From NCBI RefSeq assembly GCF_051860745.1, contig NZ_JBHYDN010000003.1, forward strand, positions 119,307 to 183,306: DNA of 64,000 nucleotides, in the 5' to 3' direction. This stretch comes from Brevundimonas sp. Lineage in GTDB: Bacteria > Pseudomonadota > Alphaproteobacteria > Caulobacterales > Caulobacteraceae. A program made the position numbers and the translations under genes. Position 1 is the stretch's first letter, and every line of letters starts with the position of its first letter. The notes beneath the pieces were generated by a model, which was not told the DNA's origin, ran no database searches, and saw only the letters and a program-made list of their open reading frames with translations. Shown piece by piece: positions 8,691-27,886 of the stretch.

Positions 8691-9725
8691 ATGACGAAGC
8701 CGACGGCCCTGTTCGCCGCCCTCGCCGCCACCGCCCTTCTGGCAAGCGGTCTGTCGGCTTGCGGCCCGAAGCCCGAGGTCGCCGCCACGGCGCCCGCGCG
8801 GGGGGAGCGCCTCTCCGTGGCGGAAGCCCTGATCGACGCGGTCAAGCCGGCCTCGGCTGTGGTTGCGTCGCGCGATCTCGGCGAGGCGCGCGCCCGCATT
8901 CCGGGCACGCTCACCCAGTTGAACGTGCGCGAAGGCGATACGGTGCGCCAGGGCGAGGTCATCGGCGTGGTCACCGACAACCGGGTCGGACTTGAGACGG
9001 CGGCGTACGGCGCCCAGGTCGCGGCTGCCGAGGCCGAGGCCGCGCGCGCCCGGGCCGACCTGTCACGAATCCAGACCCTGTTCGATCGAGGCATCTACGC
9101 CCAGGCCCGGCTCGACCAGGCTCTCGCCGCCTCCCAGGCCGCCAGCGCCCAGGTCCGGGCGGCGCGCGCCGTGCGCTCGGCCAGCGCCGAGACCGGGGCC
9201 CAGGGCCGGATTCTCGCCCCGACGTCAGGCCGGGTGCTCGCCGCCGACGTGCCCGCAGGCTCGGTGGTCAACGCCGGACAATCGGTCGCCACGATCACCG
9301 CCGGACCGCTCGTCCTGAGGCTGGAATTGCCGGAGGCCCAGGGCCGCAACCTGCGGGTCGGTCAAAGCGTCGTCATTTCGTCCGAGGACCTGCCCGGCGT
9401 CAGCGCCGGGACCATCGCCCAGGTCTATCCGGCGTCCAACGCCGGCCAGACCACCGCGGACATCACCGTCGCCGGCCTGAGCAGCGACCGGGTCGGGCAG
9501 CGCGTCACCGTCCAGGTGCCGGTGGGACAACGGCGCGCGCTGGTCATCCCCCGCCGCGTCGTCTCCACCCGATACGGCATCGACTTCGTCCGCACCGTCG
9601 ACCGCGCCGGCCGCGTCAGTGAGGCGCCGGTCCAGCTGGGCGGCCCCGTCAGTGGTGACCGTGTCGAGGTGTTGTCGGGTCTCGCCGTCGGCAATGTCGT
9701 TCTGGCTCCGGAGACGGCCCGATGA
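8691..9725 (+). CDS. RND efflux periplasmic adaptor (lipoprotein)
   Basis: LSAC lipobox; ARIPG...V.EGD.V..G; RILAPTSG.V. Confidence 0.9.
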   Translation: MTKPTALFAALAATALLASGLSACGPKPEVAATAPARGERLSVAEALIDAVKPASAVVASRDLGEARARIPGTLTQLNVREGDTVRQGEVIGVVTDNRVGLETAAYGAQVAAAEAEAARARADLSRIQTLFDRGIYAQARLDQALAASQAASAQVRAARAVRSASAETGAQGRILAPTSGRVLAADVPAGSVVNAGQSVATITAGPLVLRLELPEAQGRNLRVGQSVVISSEDLPGVSAGTIAQVYPASNAGQTTADITVAGLSSDRVGQRVTVQVPVGQRRALVIPRRVVSTRYGIDFVRTVDRAGRVSEAPVQLGGPVSGDRVEVLSGLAVGNVVLAPETAR

Positions 9726-12700
9726 ACCTCGGCCTGTCCGGACGGCTGACAAAGGCCACACTGAATTCGCCGCTGACCCCCCTGATGCTGCTGGCGGCCA
9801 TCGCCGTCGGCCTGATGGCTCTCATGTCGATCCCCCGCGAGGAGGAGCCGCAGATCAGCGTGCCGATGGTCGACATCATGGTCGCGGCCCCGGGGCTGAG
9901 CGCCTCCGACGCCACCGAACTGGCGGCCAAGCCGCTGGAAGCCATCGTGCGCAGCATCGACGGCGTCGAGCACGTCTACACCCAGGTGCAGGACGACCAG
10001 GTTATGGTCACCGCCCGCTTCGTGGTCGGCTCGGACCCCGACGACGCAGCGGTCCGGGTGCATGAGAAGGTGCGCGCCAACTACGGCTCCATTCCCGTCG
10101 GGGTGTCCGAGCCGCAGATCGTCACCCGGGGCATCAATGACGTGCCCGCCGTAGTCCTGACCCTGACGCCGCGCGCCGACGCCGCCGGGCGCTGGAGCGA
10201 CCAGGCCCTGTACGACGTCGCCGTCCGCTTGCGCACCGAGATCGGCAAGGTCGAAGACGTCGGCCTGACCTTCATCGTCGGGGGCCGCCCGTCCGAGATC
10301 CGGGTCGAGCCCGATCCCGCCCGCATGGCGGCGCGCGGCGTCGCCCTGTCCTCGGTGCTCGAGACCGTCGCCCAGGCCAACCGCAGCTTCCCGGCCGGCG
10401 CCTTCCGCGACCAGGGCCAGGCCGTGGCGCTGCGCTCGGGCGAGCGGCTGGCCACGCCCGACGACGCCTCCCTGCTGACCGTCCGTTCGATGGCCGGCGA
10501 GCCTGTCTACCTGCGCGACGTCGCGACCGTCGTCCAGGCTCCGCGGGAGGACCAGGCCCGCGCCGCCCACTACGCCCGCGCCGGCGACGGCTGGAGCCGG
10601 ACCCCGGCGGTCAGCCTGGCCGTCGCCAAGCGTCAGGGCGCCAACGCCGTGGTCGTTTCGCACGGGGTGATGCAACGGGTCGAGGCGCTGAAGGGCACGC
10701 TGATCCCCGATGGACTCGAGGTCGTGGTCACCCGCGACTACGGCGAGACGGCCAATGAGAAAGCCAATGAGCTGCTGATGCACCTCGGTCTGGCCACGAT
10801 CTCCATCGTCATCCTGATCGGCTTCGCCATCGGCTGGCGCGAGGCGGGCGTCACGGCGGTGGTCATTCCCACGACCATCCTGCTCACTCTCTTCGCCTCC
10901 AACCTGATGGGCTACACCATCAACCGGGTCAGCCTGTTCGCCCTGATCTTCTCGATCGGCATCCTCGTCGACGACGCCATCGTCATGATCGAGAACATCG
11001 CCCGCCACTGGGCCATGAACGACGACCGCAGCCGCGCGCAGGCCACCGTCGAGGCCGTTGCCGAGGTCGGCAACCCGACCGTGGTCGCCACCCTGACCGT
11101 GGTCGCGGCCCTGCTGCCGATGCTGTTCGTCTCGGGCCTGATGGGACCGTATATGGCGCCGATCCCGGTCAACGCCTCGGCGGCCATGGTCTTCTCCTTC
11201 TTCGTCGCCGTGGTCATCGCGCCCTGGCTGATGATCCGTCTCGCCCGCAAGACCCTGGCCGGGGGCAAGGGTCACGAGCACGGCGAGGGGAGGCTCGGTC
11301 GCCTCTACCGCAAGGTGGCCACGCCGGTGATCCGCACGCGCCGCAGCGCCTGGACTTTCCTGATCGTGGTCGGTGTCGCCACCCTGCTGGCCATGTCGAT
11401 GTTCGGCTTCCGGGCCGTGCCGGTGAAGCTGCTGCCGTTCGACAACAAGTCCGAGCTGCAGGTCGTGCTGGACATGCCCGAGGGAACCAGTCTCGAGGCC
11501 ACCGAGCGCACCCTGGCCGGGGCTGCGGCCGTGGCGGGAACCCTGTCTGAGGTCGAATCGCTCGAAAGCTATGCCGGAACCGCGGCGCCGTTCAATTTCA
11601 ACGGTCTGGTGCGTCACTATTTCCTGCGCACGGGCGCCGAACAGGGCGACCTTGCGGTGATGCTCGCCCCCAAGGGCGAGCGCAGCCGTAGCAGCCACGC
11701 CATCGCCCTTGACCTGCGCCGCCGCCTGGCCGACCTGCCGCTGCCGGCCGGATCGTCGATCAAGGTGGTCGAGGCTCCACCGGGACCGCCGGTGCTGGCG
11801 ACCCTGTTGGCCGAGGTCTACGGCCCCGATCCCGCCACCCGCCGCGCGGTGGCCGCCGAACTGGAAACCCTGTTCCGGGCCGAGTCCTCGGTCGTTGATG
11901 TGGACAACAGCTACGGCGTCCGCCGTCCGGTCCTGCGCCTGATCCCCGACCGCGAGAAGATCGAACGCTTTGGCCTGTCCGAGCGCGAGGTGCACGACTC
12001 CATCGCCGCCGTCATGGGCGGCCAGATCCTCGGCTACGCCGCGCGCGATGACGAGCGCACCCCGGTGGAGATCGCCGTGCGCCTGCCCCAGTCGGCCCGG
12101 ACGTGGAACGAGCAGATGGCCGTCATGCCGGTGGCTGTGACCACGCTGGACGGCGGCCGGCGGCTGGTCGAACTGGGGGAGGTGGTCGAGGCCCGTCACG
12201 AGCTGGCGAGCTGGCCCGTCTACCGCCGTGACGGCCGGGCCGCCGAGATGGTCACCGCCGAACTGGCCGGCGAGTTCGAGGCCCCGATCTACGGCATCCT
12301 GGCCATCGACGCCGCCATCAAGGCCCACGACTGGAAGGGTCTGCCGCGTCCCGAGGTACGGCTCAACGGCCAGCCGTCGGACGAGACAGTCCCCACCGTG
12401 CTGTGGGACGGCGAATGGGAGATCACCTGGGTGACCTTCCGCGACATGGGCGCGGCTTTCGGCGTGGCCCTGCTGGGGATCTATGTTCTGGTCGTCGCCC
12501 AGTTCAAGGACTTCCGCATCCCCCTGGTGATCCTGACGCCCATCCCCCTGACCCTGATCGGCATCGTCATCGGCCACATGCTGTTCGGCGCGCCCTTTAC
12601 CGCCACCTCGATGATCGGCTTCATCGCCCTGGCGGGGATCATCGTGCGAAACTCGATCCTGCTGGTCGACTTCATCCGCCATGCCCGAACGCCGGGACGA

Positions 12701-12952
12701 CCCCTGCGCGAGGTCCTGCTGGAGGCGGGCGCCATCCGCTTCAAGCCGATCCTGCTCACCGCCCTGGCGGCCATGATCGGCGCGGCGGTGATCCTGTTCG
12801 ATCCAATCTTCCAGGGTCTGGCCATCTCCCTGCTGTTCGGGCTGATCTCCTCGACGATTCTGACGGTGCTGGTGATCCCCGCTATCTATATCGCGTTGAA
12901 AGACGACGGCCGCCCCTTGGCCGCGCCCCCAGCCGCGCAAGAGACCCCATGA
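9722..12952 (+). CDS. RND efflux permease (AcrB/AcrD/AcrF family)
   Basis: 1076 aa; REEEPQI, GILVDDAIVMIENI, GIIVRNSILLVD, RFKPILLT. Confidence 0.93.
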   Translation: MNLGLSGRLTKATLNSPLTPLMLLAAIAVGLMALMSIPREEEPQISVPMVDIMVAAPGLSASDATELAAKPLEAIVRSIDGVEHVYTQVQDDQVMVTARFVVGSDPDDAAVRVHEKVRANYGSIPVGVSEPQIVTRGINDVPAVVLTLTPRADAAGRWSDQALYDVAVRLRTEIGKVEDVGLTFIVGGRPSEIRVEPDPARMAARGVALSSVLETVAQANRSFPAGAFRDQGQAVALRSGERLATPDDASLLTVRSMAGEPVYLRDVATVVQAPREDQARAAHYARAGDGWSRTPAVSLAVAKRQGANAVVVSHGVMQRVEALKGTLIPDGLEVVVTRDYGETANEKANELLMHLGLATISIVILIGFAIGWREAGVTAVVIPTTILLTLFASNLMGYTINRVSLFALIFSIGILVDDAIVMIENIARHWAMNDDRSRAQATVEAVAEVGNPTVVATLTVVAALLPMLFVSGLMGPYMAPIPVNASAAMVFSFFVAVVIAPWLMIRLARKTLAGGKGHEHGEGRLGRLYRKVATPVIRTRRSAWTFLIVVGVATLLAMSMFGFRAVPVKLLPFDNKSELQVVLDMPEGTSLEATERTLAGAAAVAGTLSEVESLESYAGTAAPFNFNGLVRHYFLRTGAEQGDLAVMLAPKGERSRSSHAIALDLRRRLADLPLPAGSSIKVVEAPPGPPVLATLLAEVYGPDPATRRAVAAELETLFRAESSVVDVDNSYGVRRPVLRLIPDREKIERFGLSEREVHDSIAAVMGGQILGYAARDDERTPVEIAVRLPQSARTWNEQMAVMPVAVTTLDGGRRLVELGEVVEARHELASWPVYRRDGRAAEMVTAELAGEFEAPIYGILAIDAAIKAHDWKGLPRPEVRLNGQPSDETVPTVLWDGEWEITWVTFRDMGAAFGVALLGIYVLVVAQFKDFRIPLVILTPIPLTLIGIVIGHMLFGAPFTATSMIGFIALAGIIVRNSILLVDFIRHARTPGRPLREVLLEAGAIRFKPILLTALAAMIGAAVILFDPIFQGLAISLLFGLISSTILTVLVIPAIYIALKDDGRPLAAPPAAQETP

Positions 12953-13293
12953 CCGACGCCCTGCCCATGCCGAACGCCGCCGCCCTCGCCGAGCTCGAGG
13001 CCAGCGCCGCTCCCGCCGCCCGCCTCATGCGGCTGTTCGCCAACGAGCAGCGGTTGATGCTCATGTGCCGGCTGAGCGAAGGTGAGTGCGCGGTCGGCGA
13101 GTTGGCCGGCTATGCGGGCCTGTCACAGTCAGCCTGTTCGCAGCATCTCGCCCGCCTGCGCGAGGCCGACGTCATCGCTCCGCGGCGCGAGGCCCAGACC
13201 ATCTACTACGGCATCTCGGATCCGGCCGCGGCCCGCCTCATCGCCCTGCTCTGCGACATCTACCGCGACAAACCCCAGGACCAGACATCATGA
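12949..13293 (+). CDS. ArsR/SmtB repressor, SqrR/BigR-like
   Basis: ANEQRLMLMC...SQHLARLR...REAQTIYY...LLCDIY, with Cys in helix 2 and helix 5 as in SqrR/BigR. Confidence 0.85.
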   Translation: MTDALPMPNAAALAELEASAAPAARLMRLFANEQRLMLMCRLSEGECAVGELAGYAGLSQSACSQHLARLREADVIAPRREAQTIYYGISDPAAARLIALLCDIYRDKPQDQTS

Positions 13294-13673
13294 CCTATTT
13301 TTACGCCCGCACGATCGAAGGCGACTTCGAGGCTGTCGTCGAGCGGACCCGCGCCGCGTTGCAGAAACACGGCTTCGGCGTCCTCACCGAGATCGACGTT
13401 CAGGCCACGCTCAAGGCGAAGATCGGGGAGGACTTCCGCCCCTACCGCATCCTCGGCGCCTGCAACCCGGTCATGGCCCATGAGGCCCTGAAGATGGAGT
13501 CCCACGTCGGCGTCATGCTGCCCTGCAACGTCGTGGTCCAGCAGACCGACGGCGGCGTCGAAGTCTTTGCGGTCGATCCGGCGGCCTCGATGTCGGCCAT
13601 CGAAAACGCCGGACTTCTCAGGCACGCCCAAACGGTGGGCGAGCACCTGCGCGCCGCTGTCGCCGAAGTCTGA
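13290..13673 (+). CDS. DUF302 domain protein
   Basis: GFGVLTEIDVQATLK...ILGACNP...GVMLPCNVVV. Confidence 0.9.
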   Translation: MTYFYARTIEGDFEAVVERTRAALQKHGFGVLTEIDVQATLKAKIGEDFRPYRILGACNPVMAHEALKMESHVGVMLPCNVVVQQTDGGVEVFAVDPAASMSAIENAGLLRHAQTVGEHLRAAVAEV

Positions 13674-16289: not shown

Positions 16290-18671
16290 ATGATCAAGAT
16301 GAAGTTTGGCGGGAGAGTGCGGGGCGCTCTTTGGTCGGCGGCCCTGATGGGCAGCACCATGCTGGCCGGCGTCCCGGCCGCAATGGCCCAGGACGCTGAG
16401 CGGACAACCACGATCGACGACATTATCGTCACCGCCCAGAAGCGTGACGAGAACCTGCAGGACGTGCCCATCAGTATCCAGGCGCTCGGCGGTGAACGGC
16501 TCGAGCAGATGGGGGTGTCGGACTTCAACGACTACGTCAAACTCCTGCCCAGCGTCTCCTACCAGACCATCGCTCCGGGATTCTCGGGCGTCTATATGCG
16601 CGGCATCGCCAGCGGCGGGGACGGCAACCATTCTGGTTCCCTTCCCAGCGTCGGCGTCTATCTGGACGAACAACCGGTCACGACCATCCAGGGGCCTCTC
16701 GACGTCAATGTCTATGACATGAGCCGGGTCGAGGCGCTGGCCGGCCCGCAGGGCACCCTGTACGGGGCCAGTTCCCAAGCCGGGACGATCCGCCTGATCA
16801 CCAACAAGCCCGACTTCAGCCGGCGCTACGGACAAGTCGATGTGGAGGCCAATTCGGTGGCCCACGGCGGAGTCGGCGGCAGCGTCGAGGGCTTCGTCAA
16901 TCTGCCGATCAGTGAGCGCATCGCCGCCCGCGTCGTCGGCTGGTACCGGCAGGATGCCGGTTACATCGACAATGTCGCCGGAACCCTCACCTATCCGACC
17001 TCGGGGGCGACCATTAACAACGCCAGCCGGGTCGAGGATGACTACAACGACTCCACCGTGATGGGCGGCCGGGCCGCGCTCAGGATCGAGCTGGACGATA
17101 CCTGGACGGCCACGGCGTCCCTGATGGGACAGACCGCCGACAGCAATGGCAACTGGTCTTATGACCCGGCCAAGGGCGACCTGAAGGCCAGCCATTTCTA
17201 TCCTGAAACCCTTGAGGACCGCTGGCACCAGGCGGCGCTCACGGTTACCGGACGCGTCGGTAGCTGGGACCTCGTCTACGCCGGGGCCCATATGAACCGC
17301 AATGACGAGATACAGCAGGACTACTCGGACTATTCCTTCTTCTATGACACCTTGGCCGGCTACGGGGCCTACTGGACCGACGACTCCGGCACGCCGCTCG
17401 ACAATCCGTCGCAGTATATCCAAGCCACCGACCAGTACCGGCGCAACAGCCACGAGGTTCGGCTGTCGTCGCCCACGGACGCCCGTCTCCGCGCCGTGGC
17501 CGGCGTGTTTTACCAGCAGCAAACGCATGACATCGAACAGAAATATCGGATCGACGGCCTTGCCGGCCCCGGGGGGGCGGTCCCCTCGCTGGAGGTCACA
17601 GGCCAGCCTGACACCCTGTGGCTGACGCAGCAGGTCCGAGAGGATGACGACACGGCCGTGTTTGGAGAGCTTTCCTACGACCTCACCGATCGACTCACCC
17701 TGACCGGCGGCCTGCGGCTCTTCAGGTCCGAGAACTCCCTGCGCGGCTTCTTCGGCTTCGGCACGGGGTACAGCGCCACGCTGGGCGAGGGTTCCTGCTT
17801 CTCCGGGCCGATTGTCCCCGATTCGCCCTGCACCAACCTTGACAAGAGTGTCGAGGAAAGCGGCTCGACCCATAGGCTGAACCTTACCTATAAGATCGAC
17901 GAAGACCGCATGGTCTATGCCACCTGGTCGACCGGCTATCGCCCCGGCGGCATCAATCGGCGCGGCACCCTGCCGCCCTATGATTCAGACTTCCTGACCA
18001 ATCATGAGATGGGCTGGAAGACCACCTGGATGGATGGCAGTCTGCGCTGGAACGGTGCGGTTTACGCCCTTCAGTGGGAGGACTTCCAGTTCTCCATCCT
18101 CGGATCGAACGGGCTGACCGAGATCAAGAATGCGGCCCAGGCCCGGGTGATGGGCGCCGAGAGCGACGTGGTTTGGCGGGTGACCCCTGACCTGACCCTG
18201 TCGGGTGCGATGGCCTATACGGACGCTGAACTCTCCGAAAACTATTGTGGGTTCCTTGCACCGGACGGGTCGCCCGAAACCAACTGCCCGACTCCGCAGT
18301 CACCGGAGGGCACCGAACTGCCGGTCACGCCCAGGTTCAAGGCCAACATGACGGCCCGCTACGAATTTCCTCTCGGCAGCCTCGACGGGTTCGTCCAGGG
18401 ATCGATGGTCTATGTCGGCGAAAACTGGACCGATCTGCGGCTGATCGAGCGAGCGATCATTGGCGAGCAGCCCGCCTATACGACGGCCGACCTGTCAGCC
18501 GGCCTGGCCAGCGATGTCTGGACCGCGACCCTGGCCGTCAGCAATGTCACCGACGAACGGGCCAGTCTGTATCGCTATGCCCAGTGCGCCGAACAGGTCT
18601 GCGGCGCCAGGACCTACGTCGTACCCAACCGACCTCGCATGATCAGCCTCCGCCTCGGCTGGAAATTCTGA
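16290..18671 (+). CDS. TonB-dependent receptor
   Basis: Signal peptide; IIVTAQKR...QDVPISI plug; GPQGTLYG; ends in RLGWKF. Confidence 0.93.
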   Translation: MIKMKFGGRVRGALWSAALMGSTMLAGVPAAMAQDAERTTTIDDIIVTAQKRDENLQDVPISIQALGGERLEQMGVSDFNDYVKLLPSVSYQTIAPGFSGVYMRGIASGGDGNHSGSLPSVGVYLDEQPVTTIQGPLDVNVYDMSRVEALAGPQGTLYGASSQAGTIRLITNKPDFSRRYGQVDVEANSVAHGGVGGSVEGFVNLPISERIAARVVGWYRQDAGYIDNVAGTLTYPTSGATINNASRVEDDYNDSTVMGGRAALRIELDDTWTATASLMGQTADSNGNWSYDPAKGDLKASHFYPETLEDRWHQAALTVTGRVGSWDLVYAGAHMNRNDEIQQDYSDYSFFYDTLAGYGAYWTDDSGTPLDNPSQYIQATDQYRRNSHEVRLSSPTDARLRAVAGVFYQQQTHDIEQKYRIDGLAGPGGAVPSLEVTGQPDTLWLTQQVREDDDTAVFGELSYDLTDRLTLTGGLRLFRSENSLRGFFGFGTGYSATLGEGSCFSGPIVPDSPCTNLDKSVEESGSTHRLNLTYKIDEDRMVYATWSTGYRPGGINRRGTLPPYDSDFLTNHEMGWKTTWMDGSLRWNGAVYALQWEDFQFSILGSNGLTEIKNAAQARVMGAESDVVWRVTPDLTLSGAMAYTDAELSENYCGFLAPDGSPETNCPTPQSPEGTELPVTPRFKANMTARYEFPLGSLDGFVQGSMVYVGENWTDLRLIERAIIGEQPAYTTADLSAGLASDVWTATLAVSNVTDERASLYRYAQCAEQVCGARTYVVPNRPRMISLRLGWKF

Positions 18672-19069: not shown

Positions 19070-19864
19070 GGTGCTGGCAGTCTAACGCTTACTTGTCTCC
19101 GGTTTGGCCGATAGGCCAGGAGGCGGGATGGATCTGATCAGTTTCAAGCGGCATCGGTTCCCCCGGCGCTGTGATCTTGCAGGCGGTGCGCTGGTATTTC
19201 CGGTTCACGCTCAGCATTCATGACGTGGAAGTTGATGGCCAAACGCGGGATCGAGGCGATCCGGTGCTGGGTGATCAAGTTGAGCCTCTGATTGCCGCCA
19301 ACCTGCGCCGGGCGAGATCACGCCCTACCGGCCGTTGGCACCTGGATGAGGTTGTCGTGAAGATCGGTGGCCGGCGAATGTATCTGTGGCGCGCTGTCGA
19401 TGACGAGGGCGAGGTGTTCGACGTTCTGGTCCAGAAGCGCCGGAACAAGCAGGCGGAGCTGAAGCTGCCGCGCCGCCTCTTGCGCAACAGCGGGATCCAT
19501 CCGGAGGCCATCGTCACCGATAAGCTGGCCTCATACCGGGCGGCGATGAAGGTGCTGAAACTCCAGGCTCGTCACCGCCCCGGCGGGATGCGGGAGAACA
19601 ATCGCGCCGAAAACTCGCACCTCCTGATCCGACGACGAGAACGCAAACAGCAGAAGTTCAAATCCCAAGGCTCAGCCCGGCGTTTCCTTTCCAGCCACGG
19701 TTCGATCTGCAACGCGGTCAATCTCCAGCCCCAGCTGATGTCCCGAGCCGGCCTCCGCTCCCCGCGAGGTCTGGCCGATGACGCCTGGGCGGCGGCAACC
19801 CAAGCTGCCTGAATGGGGAAAGGGGAGGGGCGCTTTGCGGGCCGAAGGACCTAACTTCAGGACC
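19070..19864 (+). mobile_element. IS6-family element copy 1, transposase frameshifted (ATG 19128 to TGA 19812)
   Basis: FKRHRFP, WHLDEVVVKI, LWRAVDDEGE, NNRAENSH. Left end GGTGCTGGCAG; degenerate right end ...AACTTCAGGACC. Confidence 0.88.
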
Positions 19865-20083
19865 GGCTGGCTTCGACTTCCGCAACCATCATATGAAGGT
19901 CAAGGTTGACGGCGACACCGCCTTCGTGACCGAGACCTATACTTGCCACATCACCTTCAAGGACGGCGCCCGGGGCCCCATCGAGTGTCGCGGAGCGGCC
20001 ACGAGCGTGCTGCGCAAGCGGGGTGACGAGTGGAGGTTCGACGTCTATCACTCCTCGGCCCAACCCTTCCGCCCACCGCCTGA
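19865..20083 (+). pseudogene. 5'-truncated NTF2/DUF4440-like protein
   Basis: VKVDGDTAFVTETY...ATSVLRKRGDEWRF..YHSS begins right at the IS6 right end; its own stop appears shifted out of frame. Confidence 0.6.
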
Positions 20084-20136
20084 TCGCGGCGGCAACCGTC
20101 ACCGGCGGCCTCCAGATATCGCTCGCCAGAGGGACC

Positions 20137-20607
20137 ATGAGATCGATGCTCACGCTTTCACGCCGCGTTTTTCTGCTCGCGGAGGCCGAATCTGTCACGG
20201 TCGCGGCCTGCGCTCCCGGCGCTCGGCCGTCGACCGGGCTCGTGGTGTACAAGACCCCGACCTGCGGCTGCTGCACGGCCTGGGTGGACCACATGCGCGG
20301 CGCGGGTTTCGAGGCGCAGGTCAATGAACTTCCGGACCTCCGCTCCATACGCAGCACCCAGGGCGTGCCGGAGGCGCTCGCCTCCTGCCACACGGTGTTG
20401 GTCGGCGGCTATGTGCTGGAGGGCCGGGTGCCGGCCGCGGATGTGCGCAAGCTTCTGGCCGAACGTCCGGAGGGCGAGGGCCTCGTCGTTCCTGGCATGC
20501 CGCTGGGGTCTACCGGCATGGAGACGCCCGACGACCAGCGGGAACCCTATGAGACCCTGCTGATCCTCAAGGGCGGCGGCACGCGCGTCTTCGCGCGTCA
20601 CGCCTAG
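20137..20607 (+). CDS. DUF411 metal-binding protein
   Basis: VYKTPTCGCC..WVDHM, SCHT, GRVPA, VPGMPLGS.GM. Confidence 0.9.
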   Translation: MRSMLTLSRRVFLLAEAESVTVAACAPGARPSTGLVVYKTPTCGCCTAWVDHMRGAGFEAQVNELPDLRSIRSTQGVPEALASCHTVLVGGYVLEGRVPAADVRKLLAERPEGEGLVVPGMPLGSTGMETPDDQREPYETLLILKGGGTRVFARHA

Positions 20608-20620
20608 AAGGGATGCGGTC

Positions 20621-21349
20621 ATGAACGTTCTCAAGCTCTCGACGCAGTTGCATAAATGGATCGCCCTGGTGGTCGGGCTCCAGGTTCTTTTCTGGGTGGG
20701 CGGCGGTCTGGTCATGACGGCCATTCCGATCGAGACGGTGCGCGGCGAACATCGCGCAGCCGAACTCAAGCCAAATCCACTCGCTCTGGGCCGCTTGCCG
20801 GCGCTCGGCGAGATCGCCCGCCGCGCGGGCGTCGCTCCCGTCCAGGCGGAATTGCACACGACCCCCCGGGGGCCGGCCTGGACATTGAAGCCCGCCAGCG
20901 GCGAGCCGATCATCGTATCCGCCCTGACCGGTCGGCCCTTCGGTCCCCTGTCGGCCGCGGACGCCTCGGCATTCGCCAAGCGCGCCTATCGAGGAACGGC
21001 GGAAGTGTCCGGCGTCGCGCTGTTGCCGGAGGCGCCCCAGGAGACGGGCCGCACGGGACCTCTCTGGCGCGTGGATTTCGCTGACCGCGAAAAGACCAGC
21101 TTCTACCTGTCTCCGGCCACGGCCGAGGTGGTGACCCGCCGCTCCGGCGTCTGGCGCCTCTTCGACTTCTTCTGGCGTCTCCATGTCATGGACTGGAACG
21201 ACGGCGAGGATTTCAATCACCCCCTGATCATCATCACCACGGCGTTGACGCTGAGCATCGTCATTTCGGGGTTCATCCTTCTCTGGATCCGGCTGGCGCG
21301 GGACGTGAAGGTGTTCAAGGCATCACGGCGGGCCGTCCGGCCGGAGTGA
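20621..21349 (+). CDS. PepSY-associated TM helix domain protein
   Basis: LHKWIALVVG.Q...W..GG; WRLFDFFWRLHVMD; C-terminal TM helix. Confidence 0.8.
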   Translation: MNVLKLSTQLHKWIALVVGLQVLFWVGGGLVMTAIPIETVRGEHRAAELKPNPLALGRLPALGEIARRAGVAPVQAELHTTPRGPAWTLKPASGEPIIVSALTGRPFGPLSAADASAFAKRAYRGTAEVSGVALLPEAPQETGRTGPLWRVDFADREKTSFYLSPATAEVVTRRSGVWRLFDFFWRLHVMDWNDGEDFNHPLIIITTALTLSIVISGFILLWIRLARDVKVFKASRRAVRPE

Positions 21350-21578
21350 CGCGATCCGCAGGACCGGCCATGCACCCATGCCCTGTCCGTGCCCGGCTCA
21401 GGCGATGAGTGGATGGACAGCGGAACCCGGTTGGTTCCGACTTCATCGGCGCACAGAGGTTCGCCCGGGCGACCCTGCACGATCGCCTCGAACTCCTCTT
21501 CTTCGGATGTCAAGCCGGGGTTTGAGCGGAGCGCCCGCCGCCTTGACTCGCCGGAGAGCGAAGCGGAACGTCCGCGGC

Positions 21579-21944
21579 ATGTGGCGCATTGTTCGCACCC
21601 TTCTGTTCGCACTCGTTCTGGCCGGCTCCATCGGCCAGGCGTCGGCGTTCGCCGCGCCTGAGCGGCCGGACGCGACCGCGGACGCCATGGACGCCATGCC
21701 GGATTGCACCGAGATGATGATGCAGGCGGGGGCCGAAGGTCCGGCGGCTCCCTGCGATGACGCCGGCCCCGACTGCATGGGCCGCGTGGCTTGCACCGCG
21801 GTCGTGGTTCCGCTGCCGTCCGGCGCGGACTTCACGGTCCGGCCGCCGGCGCCGCGCCGGCAGCAGGTCGCATTAGGCCGCGACGACACCCGCGCAGGGG
21901 AATGGCCCGCGCCCCTCGGCAATCCTCCCAAGTCGCCGGCGTAG
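21579..21944 (+). CDS. Small exported Cys/Met-rich protein (DUF2946-like leader ORF) upstream of cusC
   Basis: Signal peptide; MPDCTEMMM...PCDDAGPDCMGRVAC; C-terminal LGNPPK. Confidence 0.7.
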   Translation: MWRIVRTLLFALVLAGSIGQASAFAAPERPDATADAMDAMPDCTEMMMQAGAEGPAAPCDDAGPDCMGRVACTAVVVPLPSGADFTVRPPAPRRQQVALGRDDTRAGEWPAPLGNPPKSPA

Positions 21945-22050
21945 CCCAGCTTCGCTGACCACGGCCTGCGCGCTCGCGTGGGCGTTGGCCGAACGACCTG
22001 CTTTCCGCGCCGCCTCAAGGTGATCGGCGCGGGGTCTTGAGGACATTCCA

Positions 22051-23388
22051 ATGAACTCCGACTATCGAACGGCTCCGGGCCGTCCCGCGTCACCCGCCGC
22101 GGCCTGTCCGGACAGCGGGAAGCCGCCCCGGCGAGCCAGGAGCGGCCCCAAGGGGACGGCCGGCGCCGCAGCCGCCATCTGCGTGCTCGCCGCCTTTGGC
22201 GCGCCGGCTATGGCGGAGCCGTTGACCTTCGACGAGGCCCTGGCGCTCGCCGAGGCAACTGCTCCGCAACTGCGGGCCAGCGCCCTTGGCGTGTCGGCGG
22301 CCTCGGCGGCCTCGGCGGCCGCAGGCCGGCTCCCGGACCCACAGCTCCGGTTCGGGATCGACAACCTGCCGGTCTCGGGCCCCATGGCTGGTCGGTTCGG
22401 CGACGACGAAATGACCATGGCCCGCATCGGCCTCATGCAGGAGGTTCCCAGTGGAGCCCGGCGGCGCGCCGAGCGCGCCGTGGCGGAAGCCGACATCGAG
22501 GTGGCCGCCGCCGGCGATGCAATCGCCCGCCGCGAAGCGCGGATCGCCGTCGGCCTGGCCTGGATTGACCTGCACTACACCGGGCGCCGGCTCGCCGCGA
22601 TCGAGGAGGTGCTCTCGACGCTGGAGCCTCTCTGGGACGCCGCGCCTGCGGGCGTGGCGTCCGGAACGGATCGGCCGGCCGGCGCCCTGACGCCGGTCTT
22701 GTTGCGCGCCGCCCTCCAGGACCGGCGCAGCATGCTCATCGCCGACGAGACGAGGGCTCGCGGCGAGTTGACGCGCTGGACCGGCGACCTGGATCCAGCG
22801 GCGAGCGGGCCAGCACCCGACCTCGAGGTCGAGCCCGCCGTCCTCAGAATCGGCCTGGAGCGGCTCCCGACCCTGCAGGTATGGCGGGCGGCCGGAAGCC
22901 GCGCCGACGCCGAGGTCGACCTCGCCCGGTCGGGGCGACGGCCCGACTGGTCCTTCGAGGTCAGCTACGGCCGCCGGGATCCCATGTTCGGGGACATGCT
23001 GTCGGTGGGGGCCAGCGTCAGCTTGCCGCTCTTCGCCAATCAGCGCCAGGAGCCGTTGATCACCGCCCGCGCCGCCGACGCCGTGCGCGTGCGGCTGGAG
23101 CGCGAGGCCGTAGCGCGCGAATTACGCGCCGCCCTTGACGCCGCGCTCGCCGACCTTGCCGCGCGCCGGGACCAGTGGGTCCGGTCGCGCGACGTCATTC
23201 TTCCGGCCGCCCGCCAGAGAGCGGATCTGGAAACCGCGAGCTACGCCGCGGGGCGCGTGGGCCTGGCGGAGGTCCTCGAAGTCTTTACCGCGATGGCCGA
23301 CGCGCGCCTCGACGCCCTCGATCGCGAAGCCGCCCTGGCCCGCGACACGGTTCGCATCACCCTCACCTACAGGAGCGACGACCGATGA
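22051..23388 (+). CDS. TolC/CusC-like outer membrane factor
   Basis: AAGRLPDPQL, DDEMTMARIGLMQ, RRPDW, MLSVGASVSLPLF; first gene of a C-B-A operon. Confidence 0.85.
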   Translation: MNSDYRTAPGRPASPAAACPDSGKPPRRARSGPKGTAGAAAAICVLAAFGAPAMAEPLTFDEALALAEATAPQLRASALGVSAASAASAAAGRLPDPQLRFGIDNLPVSGPMAGRFGDDEMTMARIGLMQEVPSGARRRAERAVAEADIEVAAAGDAIARREARIAVGLAWIDLHYTGRRLAAIEEVLSTLEPLWDAAPAGVASGTDRPAGALTPVLLRAALQDRRSMLIADETRARGELTRWTGDLDPAASGPAPDLEVEPAVLRIGLERLPTLQVWRAAGSRADAEVDLARSGRRPDWSFEVSYGRRDPMFGDMLSVGASVSLPLFANQRQEPLITARAADAVRVRLEREAVARELRAALDAALADLAARRDQWVRSRDVILPAARQRADLETASYAAGRVGLAEVLEVFTAMADARLDALDREAALARDTVRITLTYRSDDR

Positions 23389-24755
23389 CCGGTTCGCCCA
23401 ACAATCGCGTCGCGCTTGCGGCGGGCGCCGCCCTGGTTCTCGGCGTCGGCCTCGCGGCGGGACTGATCGGTCGCCCGATGCTGGAGCGCGCCGACAAGGC
23501 CGTCGGCGGCGACGTCCGACCCGGAGAGCGCGAAATTCTCTACTGGTACGATCCGATGCTGCCCAACGAGCGCTACCCGGGCCCGGGCCGCTCCTCGATG
23601 AACATGGAACTGATCCCGAAACACGCCGACGAGGCGGGCGGTGCGCCCGGCGTGCGCATCGATTCGGCTCTGGCCCAGAACCTCGGCATGCGTCTGGCGA
23701 CGGTGCGCCGGGGGCCGCTGGAAGGCGACCTCACCGCCTCCGCGGTGATCGACTATAATCAGCGCGATGTGGCCATCGTCCAGGCGCGCGCCGCCGGCTT
23801 TGTTCAGCGAGTCTACGGCCGCGCGCCCGGCGACATCATCGCCGCCGGCGCGCCCCTGGTCGACCTCCTCATCCCGGAGTGGGCCGGGGCCCAGGGCGAG
23901 TATCTGGCCGTCCGCCGGACGGGCGACGCGGCCCTGATCGAGGCGGCCCGGCGTCGACTCGTGCTGCTCGGGATGTCCGAGCCGCTGATCGCCCAGGTCG
24001 AACGAACCGGTCGGCCGAGGACCACGGTGACCATCGCCAGCCCGTCCGCCGGGGCCATCCGCAGTCTGGGCGTTCGGACCGGGATGAGCGTCAACCCCGG
24101 GCAGACCCTCGCCGAGATCAGCGGGCTGTCGACCGTGTGGTTGAACGCCGCCGTTCCCGAGATGCAGGCGGACCGGCTCCGGGTGGGCCAGGCCGTCGAG
24201 GTCGCCCTGTCCGCCTTCCCGGGCGAACGGTTCGCCGGACGCCTGACGGCGCTGCTGCCCGAGGTGTCCGGGGACAGCCGCACCCTGACCGCGCGCATCG
24301 AGATGGCCAATCGCGCGGGGCGGCTGCGGCCCGGTATGTACGGGCAGATCACCTTCGGAGGGGGCGGCGGTCCGGTTCTGCTCGTTCCGTCCGAAACCGT
24401 GATCCGAACAGGCGAAAGAACCCTCGTAATGCTGGCCCTGCCCGAGGGTCGCTACCAGCCGACCGAGGTCCGGACCGGACGGGAATCCGGCGGGATGACC
24501 GAGATCGTGGGCGGGCTGGCGGAGGGCGAACGCATCGTGGCCTCGGGTCAGTTTCTGATCGACTCCGAGGCCAGCCTCTCCGGCGTGGCGGCCCGGCCGA
24601 TTTCGGGCGGGCGGGTGCCTGTCGCGCCGGCTGCGTCCTCGGCGCCCGCGGCGCATTCAACGCATCCTGCGCCGACCGCGCCCGCTGCGCCCACTCCGGC
24701 TGCTCCGCCGGCCGTGGCGGATGAACACGCCGGCCATGGAGGAGCCGCGCAATGA
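23385..24755 (+). CDS. cusB: CusB-like periplasmic adaptor
   Basis: YWYDPM...[12 protein letters not shown] Met motif; GRLRPGMY; SGQFLIDSE. Confidence 0.88.
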
Positions 24756-27700
24756 TCGCCGCCCTCATCCGCGCCTCGGTCCGGGCCCGCTTCCTTGTGC
24801 TTATGGCCGCCTTCGCCCTGGCGGCGGCCGGCCTCTGGGCGGTGCGGACCACCCCGGTGGACGCCTTGCCCGACCTGTCCGACGTCCAGGTGATCATTCG
24901 CACCAGCTATCCCGGCCAGGCTCCGCAGATTGTCGAAAACCAGGTCACCTACCCCCTGGCCACCACCATGCTGTCGGTGCCCGGCGCGCGCACCGTGCGG
25001 GGCTATTCCTTCTTCGGCGACAGCTTCGTTTACGTCCTGTTCGACGAGGGAACCGACCTCTACTGGGCGCGGTCCCGGGTTCTCGAATACCTGAACCAGG
25101 TGCAGGCTCGCCTTCCGGAGAGCGCACGTCCCGCCTTGGGCCCGGACGCCACAGGCGTCGGCTGGGTTTATGAATACGCCCTCGTTGACCGTTCCGGCCG
25201 CCACGACTTGGCCCAGTTGCGAAGCCTGCAGGACTGGTTCCTCCGCTATGAACTGAAAACCGTTCCGGGCGTGGCCGAGGTGGCCAGTATCGGGGGCATG
25301 GTGCGGCAGTACCAGGTGGTGCTCGACCCGGTCCGGCTGGCCGCCTACGGCGTCACCCATCAGGCCGTGGTTGAGGCGATTGGGCGCGCCAATTCCGAAA
25401 CCGGCGGGTCGGTGCTGGAGCTGGCCGAAGCCGAATATATGGTCAGGGCCAACGGCTATCTGACCAGTCTCGACGATTTCCGGGCCGTGCCCGTCCGGAC
25501 GGCGGCGGGCGGCGTGCCCGTCACCCTCGGCGACGTCGCCACGGTTCAGGTCGGTCCCGAGATGCGGCGCGGCATTGCCGAGCTGAACGGCGAGGGCGAG
25601 GTCGCAGGCGGGGTGGTCATCCTGCGCTCGGGGGCCGACGCCCGGGCCACGATCGAGGCCGTCGCCGACCGGCTCGAGACCCTGAAGGCCGGTTTGCCTC
25701 CCGGGGTCGAGGTGGTGACGACCTATGATCGCTCGCAGCTGATCGACCGCGCCATCGCCAACCTCAGCACCAAGCTGATCGAGGAGTTCATCGTCGTCGC
25801 CCTCGTCTGCGGCCTGTTCCTGTGGCACGCCCGTTCCGCCCTGGTGGCCATCCTGACCTTGCCGCTCGGCGTGCTCGCCGCCTTTCTGATCATGAACCTG
25901 CAGGGGGTGAACGCCAACATCATGTCGCTCGGGGGCATCGCCATCGCCGTCGGAGCCATGGTCGACGCGGCGGTGGTCATGATCGAGAACGCCCACAAGC
26001 ATATCGAACGGTGGGAGCATGAGCACCCCGACGAAACGCTCGCGGGAGAGTCTCGCTGGAAGGTGATCACGGACGCTGCGGTGGAAGTCGGTCCGGCCCT
26101 GTTCCTCAGCCTGGTGATCATTACCCTGTCGTTCATTCCGGTGTTCAGCCTGCAAGCCCAGGAGGGCCGGTTGTTCGCGCCGCTGGCCTTCACCAAGAGC
26201 TACGCCATGGCGGCAGCGGCCATCCTGTCGGTGACTCTCGTGCCGGTCCTGATGGGTTATCTGATCCGGGGGCGCATCCCCGCGGAGCAGGCCAATCCCG
26301 TCAACCGATGGTTGACGCACCTCTATCGCGCCCCGCTCGACTGGGTGCTCCGGCGACCGCGGACGACCTTGGCGATCGCTGTCATCGCGTTCGCCACGAC
26401 CGCTTGGCCGCTGAGCCAGATCGGCGGCGAGTTCATGCCCGCCATGGACGAGGGCGATCTGCTCTACATGCCGTCCGCCCAGCCGGGTCTGTCGGCGGCG
26501 GCGGCGTCAGCGCTGCTGCAGAGAACCGACCGGATGATCCGAACCGTGCCCGAGGTCGCCACCGTGTTCGGCAAGGCGGGGAGGGCGGAATCCGCCACCG
26601 ATCCGGCCCCGCTGGAGATGTTCGAAACCACGATCCAGTTCAAGCCGCGGGACCAATGGCGGCCCGGCATGACGCCGGAAAAGCTGGTCGAAGAGCTCGA
26701 CCGCGCGGTTCAGGTTCCGGGCCTGGCCAATGTCTGGGTGCCGCCGATCCGCAACCGCATCGACATGCTGGCGACGGGAATCAAAAGCCCCATCGGCGTC
26801 AAGGTTTCGGGGGCCGATCTGGCCGTGATCGACCGTATCGCCGGCCGCGTCGCCGAGGTCGCGGAGGCCGTGCCGGGGGTGAGCTCGGCGATCGCCGAGC
26901 GCCTGACCGGCGGCCGCTATGTGGATGTCGATATCGATCGCGCCGCCGCGGGCCGCTACGGGCTCAACATCGCCGATGTTCAGTCGATCGTCGCCAGCGC
27001 CATCGGCGGCGAGACCATCGGTCAGACGGTCGAGGGGGTGGCGCGCTATCCAATCAGCGTCCGTTATCCGCGCGAGATGCGCGACAATCCCGAACAGCTG
27101 CGGAACCTTCCGATCCTGACCCCGACGGGCCAGCAGATCACCTTGGGCGCGGTGGCCGGCATTCGCATCGCCGACGGGCCGCCGATGCTCAAGTCCGAGA
27201 ATGGACGGCCCTCGACCTGGGTCTATATTGACGTCCGTGGTCGGGATCTGGCGTCCGTGGTGGGGGACCTGCGGCGCGCCGTCGCGGCGGACGTCGATCT
27301 CGGCCCCGGGGTAAGCATCGCCTACTCCGGGCAGTTTGAATATCTCGAGCGCGCCGCCAACCGCCTGAAGATCGTCGTACCGGCGACCCTCGCGATCATC
27401 TTCCTGCTGCTCTACCTGACCTTTGGCCGGTTCGACGAAGCCGCCCTGATCATGGCGACGCTGCCGTTTGCTCTTACCGGCGGCGTATGGATGCTCTACC
27501 TGCTGGGCTTCAACCAGTCTGTCGCCACCGGCGTCGGCTTCATCGCCCTGGCCGGCCTCGCGGCCGAGTTCGGCGTGGTGATGCTGATCTATCTAAAGCA
27601 CGCGCTCAGGGATCGGGGACCCGACCCGGACGGCACGCAGGTCGAGGAAGCGGTCCGGGAAGGCGCCCTGCTGCGGGTTCGGCCCAAGGCGATGACCGTA

Positions 27701-27886
27701 GCGGTGATTCTGGCGGGCCTGTTCCCGATCCTGATCGGTCACGGCGCCGGCTCGGAGATCATGAGCCGGATCGCCGCGCCGGTGATCGGCGGCATGATCA
27801 CGGCGCCTTTGTTGTCGATGCTCGTCATCCCGGCGGGGTATCTCCTCCTCAGGCGCCGGAAAACACGTTCAGGAAGATCGTCATAG
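24752..27886 (+). CDS. cusA: CusA Cu(I)/Ag(I) RND permease
   Basis: [11 protein letters not shown]; three-Met site ([20 protein letters not shown]); RVRPKAMT. Confidence 0.93.

Follow-up and report, generated by a model that had tools for sequence, protein, structure and literature searches.

A 64,000-nucleotide (nt) stretch of Brevundimonas sp. DNA (contig NZ_JBHYDN010000003.1 of RefSeq assembly GCF_051860745.1, positions 119,307 to 183,306 of the forward strand; hereafter the window) carries a small open reading frame (ORF) directly ahead of a set of cusCBA-like efflux genes. On balance we think it probable, from comparison of homologous sequences, that this ORF is a cis-acting leader peptide of the CutF/CruR type heading a leader-cusC-cusB-cusA operon, and that Cu-dependent pausing of its ribosome at an N-P-P-K motif would keep the 3′ end of the ORF off the cusC ribosome-binding site (RBS).

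The ORF lies on the forward strand, from ATG at 21579 to TAG at 21942-21944, and encodes 121 amino acids (aa): MWRIVRTLLFALVLAGSIGQASAFA, then APERP...DC43TEMMMQ...PC59DDAGPDC66MGRVAC72...DDTRAGEWPAPLGNP116P117KSPA. Residues 1-25 were recognised by inspection as a signal peptide (MWRIVRTLLFALVLAGSIGQASAFA before AP, with a basic n-region, a hydrophobic core and AFA), which is kept in all relatives and modelled by AlphaFold2 as a helix over residues 2-19. Cys residues stand at positions 43, 59, 66 and 72, the last two forming a C-x5-C motif (66-72), and Met residues at 37, 40, 46-48 (a cluster) and 67. A DDTRAGE motif (102-108) is followed by N-P-P-K (115-118), and K118 by S-P-A and the stop codon. 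A preliminary description of the locus, made from the letters alone, had reported a 121-aa exported ORF with four Cys, a Met cluster and a C-terminal NPP 106 nt before cusC, and this reading holds in every particular; the spacer from leader stop to cusC covers 21945-22050. The ORF is a genuine coding gene. Over 22 distinct nucleotide sequences, codon-position entropy is 0.62 at third positions against 0.37 and 0.34 at first and second positions, and dN/dS is 0.24-0.60. A scan of the whole 64-kb window for more CutF-like ORFs returned none.

The three genes after the spacer, all on the forward strand, make up a CusCBA-type RND efflux operon, with an outer-membrane efflux protein (OEP), a CusB-type adaptor and a CusA/CzcA-type pump in one transcription unit. 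The cusC-like protein of the OEP/TolC family (22051-23388, 445 aa) matches Pfam OEP with E = 8e-32. The cusB-like membrane fusion protein (MFP; 23385-24755) matches Pfam HlyD_D23 (2e-66), HlyD_D4 and the heavy-metal-binding domain HMBD, and scores 309.7 bits against the NCBIfam CusB model PRK09783, under its cut-off of 390. The cusA-like heavy-metal RND pump (24752-27886, 1044 aa) reaches 1382 bits with NCBIfam TIGR00914 (CusA/CzcA; cut-off 701). The cusC stop and cusB start overlap by 4 nt (ATGA), as do cusB and cusA, and the same cusC/cusB overlap recurs in the gene calls of homologous loci. By reading of the sequence, the cusC RBS (22039-22053) consists of GAGGA at 22039-22043, a 7-nt spacer and ATG at 22051-22053; both GAGGA and ATG occur unchanged across 18 homologous spacers, as well as in a more distant locus, L034. 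The only alternative in-frame starts, GTG 22183 and ATG 22210, fall inside or past the signal-peptide core.

Twenty-four close homologs of the leader (69-96% identity) were found, the named ones coming from Brevundimonas or Caulobacteraceae. All of them share M1, W2, an unchanged signal-peptide core, C43, C59, C66 and P116, and at least 90% retain C72, DDTRAG and P117-K118. A profile of these homologs brought up 49 cluster representatives. A second profile, of 33 diverse members (20-54% identity to the window protein, plus one close homolog at 79%), brought up at least 273 relatives without a Pfam domain, nearly all unlabelled or called 'hypothetical protein'; the named organisms are Sphingomonadales or Brevundimonas. 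In the wide-family alignment G19, C43, C66, P116 and P117 are invariant and P58, C72, G107 and P112 nearly so.

Spacings were counted in 163 family proteins of at most 210 aa. The preliminary description had proposed conservation of the Pro-Pro tail as a check, and PP is found inside the last 12 residues of 159 of the 163. It is followed by exactly four residues before the stop in 146 of these 159, and is preceded by N, D, E or H. From the second Cys of C-x5-C to PP there are 42 residues in 118 proteins and 41-44 in 155 of 158 (44 in the window protein). Such a Cys-PP ruler, together with a motif anchored at the stop, is not easily accounted for if the product is an ordinary folded periplasmic protein.

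These counts bear on an unlikely alternative, in which the ORF encodes a mature periplasmic Cu-binding or regulatory protein acting in trans (CzcI- or metallochaperone-like), its position reflects operon membership and the hairpins of the spacer are unrelated to it. That would fit an ORF which is exported, rich in Cys and Met, under purifying selection and weakly similar to the CopL_fam 'metal-binding regulatory protein' model. There is a precedent in CzcI of Cupriavidus metallidurans, by its description also a small exported protein directly before a heavy-metal OEP-MFP-RND operon (czcCBA), which is placed among CutF-like clusters, lacks a C-terminal proline motif and is thought to be a metal-sensing regulator protein (PMC9973294). 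However, AlphaFold2, run on a 33-sequence alignment, is confident of the signal-peptide helix alone and gives the mature part no confident fold (pLDDT 50-75, pTM 0.22). Nor should a folded protein require a PP four residues from the stop, a Cys-PP ruler kept in about 150 proteins or the invariant rare CCU codon described below. In relatives the 3′ end of the ORF pairs, with covariation, with the next gene's Shine-Dalgarno (SD) sequence, and CutF itself is degraded after export and active in cis only (PMC9973294).

CutF, from the cutFOG operon of Rhodobacter capsulatus, combines a Sec signal peptide with C41xxxC45, two more Cys and a C-terminal PPP; periplasmic Cu on the nascent chain prolongs stalling, and a stem-loop shielding the cutO SD opens (PMC9973294; bioRxiv 10.1101/2025.02.05.636593). 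Under the published rules, a CutF-like protein is shorter than 150 aa, carries PP among its last 15 residues and a Sec signal peptide, and has a neighbour on the same strand no more than 1000 nt away; these rules gave 5,334 proteins in 29 clusters with varied Cys/His motifs, and RND outer-membrane efflux proteins (CusC/CzcC/SilC) are the most frequent downstream neighbours (PMC9973294). The leader, at 121 aa, has PP at 116-117, a signal peptide by inspection, and cusC 106 nt downstream, followed by cusB and cusA. The accessible part of the supplementary files of that paper (PMC9973294) yielded no Brevundimonas, Sphingomonas, Novosphingobium or Caulobacter entries.

The likeness to CutF is one of architecture and rules. 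Like CutF, the leader is encoded by a small (<150 aa) first gene in a copper operon and has four Cys, a proline motif near the stop and, by inspection, a Sec-type signal peptide; RNA structure may likewise engage the downstream SD, and the neighbour found here, an RND OEP, is of the commonest published class. If cleavage occurs after A25, the leader C-x5-C occupies mature residues 41-47, close to the C41xxxC45 of CutF. The two differ in the Cys motif (C-x5-C instead of CxxxC), in the proline motif (PP, as NPPK, instead of PPP), in the spacer (106 nt with two conserved hairpins, against 40 nt with one stem-loop), in the place of the candidate anti-SD (the Pro codons of the leader ORF itself, against the spacer) and in the gene that follows (an efflux pump, against a multicopper oxidase). 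The preliminary description had put the locus forward as possibly the most novel system in the window, yet a secretion-coupled, non-RAPP proline arrest with SD-shielding RNA is the published CutF mechanism, and OEP neighbours are published as well (PMC9973294). Probably the leader is a new, unannotated member, arguably in a clade of its own, of the CutF/CruR type, and no new system.

Every close-homolog locus with enough sequence has the order ORF-OEP-CusB-CusA, while the genes upstream vary from locus to locus (acetate kinase/PRPP synthetase, an integrase, a hydrolase, and DUF411/PepSY_TM in the window). Similarity between loci starts about 80 nt before the leader ATG, where identity is 69-89%, and runs on through the spacer; farther upstream the sequence is unrelated (54-67% identity) and the genes differ. 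Thus the evolutionary unit runs from the upstream block through leader ORF and spacer to cusCBA. Homologous spacers are 101-107 nt long and 72-85% identical, a level of conservation equal to that of coding sequence. The core of the preliminary description, a Cys-rich exported upstream ORF with a stop-proximal PP tied to cusCBA as a CruR analogue, is upheld by the conserved gene order, the fixed spacings (159 relatives) and this coding-level conservation of the spacer.

More distant relatives keep the association. In L034 a homolog of 39% identity has DUF411-PepSY_TM-CopD-CopC on one side and an OEP/CusB/CusA set on the other. Elsewhere, a homolog of 28% identity comes before an OEP. The L034 spacer (L034:3364-3480) is homologous to that of the window, with CTTTCGCTGAT..., a GC hairpin, a second hairpin (resembling P2, below) whose loop carries CCUCCGAGGUGAGU, and then TTCGAGGATTTTCATG; the gene call there probably places the OEP start wrongly, about 165 nt too far downstream. 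A tblastn search of plasmids with the window leader ORF gave no match. With a Sphingomonadales family member as the query, family members were retrieved on 39 Sphingomonadales plasmids, mostly conjugative. In most of the plasmid regions inspected the order is DUF411, family ORF, a small gene of 85-97 aa, TolC, adaptor and RND pump, so that DUF411 is the immediate upstream neighbour of the leader relative, and CopA/CopB and DUF305 are often close by. Since remote homologs and plasmid members alike head TolC-MFP-RND operons in copper islands, the leader family is tied to copper RND efflux across two orders, Caulobacterales and Sphingomonadales.

The extra small gene of the plasmid loci (L037-L046, e.g. 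L038:4001-4698), which stands ahead of TolC-MFP-RND, encodes the motif GH[YW]EWRSxPQYGPRA...CDCxMM. It and the leader relative are labelled 'hypothetical protein' everywhere, and it is this gene that the SD-sequestering helix from the last codons of the plasmid leader targets.

In all nine Sphingomonadales-type loci, the segment that begins with the final 30 nt of the ORF and runs up to the next start folds, at minimum free energy (MFE), into one stem-loop. A helix at its base joins the last 3-4 codons, the stop and about 5 nt more to the SD region of the next gene, and a GC-rich hairpin sits on top. The letters differ between lineages and the pairing is kept: ...CCTTGGC-TGA-TTGAA pairs with TTCAATTCAGACAAGG, TTCCTGATC-TGA with TCAGATCAAGGAA, AATTCTCGGC-TGA with TCAACCGAGGAATT, and ACCGTT-TGA-TCGAG with CTCGATCAAATTGG. 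The ORF tail ranks in the top 0-4% of windows of its own ORF in all nine. In the Brevundimonas window the tail falls in the top 1.8% of 21-nt windows of its ORF by duplex energy with positions -20 to +3 of cusC (-15.9 kcal/mol; UCCUC[CC]AAG against CUUGAGGA). A rough Fisher combination over 11 lineages, the window included, gives p ~2e-10, the lineages being not fully independent. Judged by these compared sequences, the 3′ end of the ORF forms a covarying SD-sequestering helix in the Sphingomonadales sister clade. At these loci PP stands four codons ahead of the stop, and a ribosome that paused on it would have the bases of the tail helix in its mRNA channel.

By analogy, the arrangement follows the logic of SecM, MifM and CutF. 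In SecM-secA, MifM-yidC2 and VemP-secDF2, too, a nascent chain that is being exported halts its ribosome shortly before an upstream ORF ends, and the halted ribosome disrupts a helix sequestering the downstream SD. Unlike the leader, SecM, MifM and VemP monitor export and not metal; they use other arrest sequences and share no homology with it.

For the clade of the window we aligned 18 distinct homologous sequences (alignment A3), from 45 nt before the leader stop to 29 nt into cusC. In the RNAalifold consensus the CCUC of the Pro codons (21924-21927) pairs with GAGG of the cusC SD (22039-22042) in 18 of 18 sequences and encloses two hairpins, P1 and P2. The arrest-motif codons CCT CCC AAG (P116, P117 and K118; 21924-21932, forward strand) thus supply a CCUC(C) complementary to GAGG(A). 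All 22 distinct sequences use CCU for P116, although this triplet accounts for 5.7% of the Pro codons counted over eight genes of the window, and it is the sole invariant T-ending codon among 28 conserved fourfold codons. With the last 30 nt of the ORF as context, the helix has a computed probability of at least 0.6 in 13 of 18 sequences.

The mechanism we envisage starts with synthesis of the peptide with its Sec signal peptide. When the ribosome arrives at N-P-P-K, the C-x5-C/Met region, 42-50 residues upstream, would be just out of ribosome and translocon, and Cu bound there would lengthen the intrinsic Pro-Pro pause. The paused ribosome would cover the 3′ end of the ORF, which would otherwise pair with the cusC SD, here through CCUC(C):GAGG(A). 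P1 and P2 would serve as a folded spacer drawing the pairing arms together. The pause would free the cusC RBS, and the 4-nt overlaps would couple translation of cusB and cusA to that of cusC. We infer that copper binds, that the ribosome pauses, which way the control runs and that a weak 4-5-bp CCUC:GAGG helix matters here. In its most specific form, which would make the leaders an unannotated alphaproteobacterial clade of Cu-sensing arrest peptides and in which the arrest codons CCU-CCC-AAG are themselves the anti-SD, the paused ribosome unmasks the cusC RBS, P1/P2 form the bridge and periplasmic Cu induces the pump without a dedicated transcription factor, the proposal is a tentative one that we would sooner doubt than accept.

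Several observations weigh against this leader-peptide interpretation, and its RNA step is the weakest link in the clade of the window. CCUC and GAGG are both invariant, and no covariation is possible either way. The helix has 4-5 bp only and depends on context: its probability is mostly below 0.25 with 45 nt of ORF, and for the window it disappears once 100-250 nt are included. The cusC SD is about 60% paired in most contexts, with weak local partners. Some clade members rank poorly for the tail:SD duplex (L024 at 39%, L025 at 21%, L012 at 17%). Compared with the 40 nt of cutF-cutO, the spacer is long (106 nt), and P1 and P2 would be beyond the reach of a ribosome pausing at PP. PP, unlike PPP or RAPP, is a weak staller alone. 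The thresholds of Pfam DUF2946 and NCBIfam CopL are both missed, and with a conserved block ahead of the ORF, transcriptional control of the usual kind could operate.

P1 (21956-21991, forward strand), absent from the preliminary description, starts 12 nt past the leader stop; 93% of its cells are paired over the 18 sequences, with 3 compensatory pairs. P2 (22005-22032, forward strand) was found by inverted-repeat search and alignment, and is the first of the two stems described previously. Its arms, CCGCGCCG (22005-22012) and CGGCGCGG (22025-22032), are 100% complementary and flank a 12-nt loop. Over the 18 spacers 97.7% of its cells are paired, with 2 compensatory pairs (C-G to U-A and back; C-G in the window); alone it is worth -15.9 kcal/mol, and its pair probability in the window is 0.88-1.0. 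L034 carries a homologous P2 hairpin with other stem letters.

The second stem of the preliminary description, CCTCAAG (22013-22019) with CTTGAGG (22036-22042), is likewise a perfect (100% complementary) inverted repeat on the forward strand (22013-22042). Its arms and those of stem 1 alternate as in a pseudoknot, joined by loops of 0, 5 and 3 nt, and the two are therefore mutually exclusive in a nested model, as had been proposed. The switch built on them, in which stem 2 hides the cusC RBS, stem 1 serves as anti-sequestor and an arrested leader ribosome sets the state, appears highly improbable all the same, and as a conserved mechanism we reject it. Both stems do exist, perfect and interleaved, and L034, at 39% identity, also has a CCUC in its P2 loop; stem 2 may be a second anti-SD in this lineage. 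But while the covariation check favoured stem 1, only 56.5% of stem 2 cells are paired. Most loci have CACCAAG and CTCGAGG as its arms, which breaks three of the seven pairs in 14-17 of 18 sequences, and the intact stem is restricted to the window and L014, a near-identical metagenome contig. Thermodynamically it is negligible: alone it is worth -8.7 kcal/mol, the best fold containing it is 11.5 kcal/mol worse than the MFE fold with stem 1, and its ensemble probability (nested model, window) is ~0. A ribosome at PP or at the stop would sit 60-80 nt upstream, out of reach of both stems, and no conserved element destabilising stem 1 was found. At most, stem 2 is a lineage-specific second anti-SD.

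As a whole, the spacer folds no better than dinucleotide shuffles (z = -1.04). An Rfam search over 21300-22300 (E<=1) returned just a spurious miRNA match inside cusC; the spacer is not a described RNA family. The P2 loop holds an SD-like AAGGUGAU (22017-22024) that matches the extended SD consensus, and GGTGA occurs in 12 of the 18 homologous spacers (by eye, alignment A3). A GTG in this loop was considered as a cusC start and discarded, being in frame in some loci, and out of frame and with a stop in the window. Within the leader ORF, CCCGCGCC (21906-21913, codons 110-112) is a perfect complement of the stem 1 3′ arm (22026-22033), and on sequence grounds it could compete with the 5′ arm. 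This pairing and the GACCA/TGGTC repeats around P1 were set aside, their conservation in alignment A3 being inconsistent by eye.

The characterised counterpart named in the preliminary description was CruR (Bp2923) of Bordetella pertussis, a DUF2946 protein with CXXC and RAPP motifs that controls a TonB-dependent transporter via Rho termination; in DUF2946/CruR proteins the distance from CXXC to RAPP is 45 residues +/- 1-2, and RAPP lies three residues from the end (PMC9426467). The DUF2946 test proposed there was negative: in an hmmscan against Pfam (E<=1), neither the window protein nor any of the 33 family members matched PF11162 or any other meaningful family. In place of CXXC the leader has C-x5-C, and in place of RAPP it has G-N-P-P-K-S-P-A-stop. 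The Cys-to-PP distance of the leader family is nevertheless constant within 1-2 residues, as in DUF2946. Failing the profile is no argument against the functional class, since CutF itself is called only 'closest to' DUF2946 (PMC8456105). CruR and the leader share the position as an upstream ORF, an export signal, a Cys motif, a C-terminal PP, the ruler (45 in CruR, 42-44 here), a long GC-rich spacer and a copper-related operon. Unlike the leader, CruR represses a TonB-dependent importer by Rho termination once Cu relieves the arrest, and its signal peptide is dispensable; the leader precedes an exporter needing induction, and the opposite sign is expected.

It seems improbable that the locus works as CruR does, with the arrested ribosome blocking Rho loading, release leading to Rho termination in the spacer, and transcription of cusCBA, not initiation at cusC, being controlled. 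This mechanism has been demonstrated for CruR with a 162-nt spacer (PMC9426467), and the spacer here is long too, with hairpins that a PP-paused ribosome cannot reach. Yet two stable, conserved, GC-rich hairpins nearly fill that spacer and there is no C-over-G skew (counted by eye), which makes it a poor Rho loading site. Cu turns the CruR operon off, the wrong sign for an efflux pump, and the SD-sequestering helix in relatives points to control of translation initiation.

The sole library model with any likeness to the leader family was NCBIfam NF033807 (CopL_fam), which the window protein matches with 20.5 bits (E = 6e-4; cut-off 40 bits not reached) and which also matches 7 of the 33 relatives, at best with E = 5e-5 and always under the cut-off. 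CopL of Xanthomonas/Stenotrophomonas is, like the leader in our interpretation, a small cis-acting ORF, required for Cu induction of the next gene (as summarised in PMC9973294). It differs in that the leader match is limited to the signal peptide and Cys region, and in that the gene downstream of CopL is the copper oxidase copA.

A candidate promoter/operator precedes the leader. This conserved block (21505-21578, forward strand) contains an inverted repeat, GTCAAG (21509-21514)/CTTGAC (21542-21547), and a -35-like TTGACT (21543-21548); its conservation suggests that it may serve as promoter or operator. No SD was seen ahead of the leader ATG, and given this the leader mRNA may be leaderless. 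Sigma-70 promoter and intrinsic terminator scans of 21300-22200 gave nothing, with alphaproteobacterial promoters poorly covered by the scan, and showed no sign of a cusC promoter or of a terminator within the spacer. Among public RNA data only metagenome-like contig runs turned up, and the two of them compared with the region gave fragmentary contigs that say nothing about transcripts. The preliminary description had stated that the operon has no local regulator. It is right in so far as no CusRS/CopRS or MerR gene was seen adjoining the cusCBA operon in the window, but a LysR gene lies just downstream and the ~75-nt upstream block could be an operator.

We therefore also weighed, and hold to be quite unlikely, a scheme in which Cu control is transcriptional, through the upstream block and a regulator encoded elsewhere, the hairpins are mRNA processing or stability elements or a termination-reinitiation bridge, and PP is incidental. 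The conserved block with its inverted repeat would be accounted for; a MerR-type regulator is found near the homologous operon on Sphingomonadales plasmids, and the cutF-cutO stem-loop was first described as an mRNA-stability effect (PMC8456105). What it leaves unexplained are the PP-to-stop and Cys-to-PP spacings, the codon constraint and the covarying tail:SD helix, and there is no regulator gene beside the operon in this window.

If the leader-peptide interpretation is true, an exported, nascent peptide sensing periplasmic Cu would control translation of the chromosomal pumps of Brevundimonas and its relatives, as well as of those carried by at least 39 Sphingomonadales plasmids, most of them conjugative. 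The CutF study predicted leader-peptide control of pumps from gene neighbourhoods (PMC9973294), and the leader offers a clean test case for a metal efflux pump. The covarying tail:SD helix and the PP fixed four codons from the stop are concrete mutational targets. A profile of the leader family, which is invisible to Pfam and NCBIfam, would improve annotation.

Some features of the surroundings can be added. The N-terminus of cusC (22051-22215) has a 34-residue extension (MNSDYRTAPGRPASPAAACPDSGKPPRRARSGPK) ahead of the signal-peptide hydrophobic core; its first ~11 codons are conserved among homologs at the nucleotide level, and YRTAPGR in the extension bears a faint likeness to the WRSxPQYGPR motif of the extra small gene of relatives. 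Directly upstream of the leader lie DUF411 and PepSY_TM genes (20023-21349, forward strand; Pfam), a copper-homeostasis context outside the conserved module; the pair also stands upstream of the 39%-identical homolog in L034. The third gene of the Bordetella cruR operon also encodes a PepSY_TM protein (PMC13038864).

The ORF at 19171-19812 looks, from its sequence motif, like an IS6-family transposase fragment; it has a TonB-dependent receptor (about 16290-18671) on one side and the copper genes on the other, a position that suggests assembly of the copper module by insertion. A second adaptor and RND pump pair occurs in the window (8691-9725 and 9722-12952), without an outer-membrane gene; an ArsR/SmtB-like regulator and a DUF302-like ORF (about 13000-13673; both by inspection) come after it.

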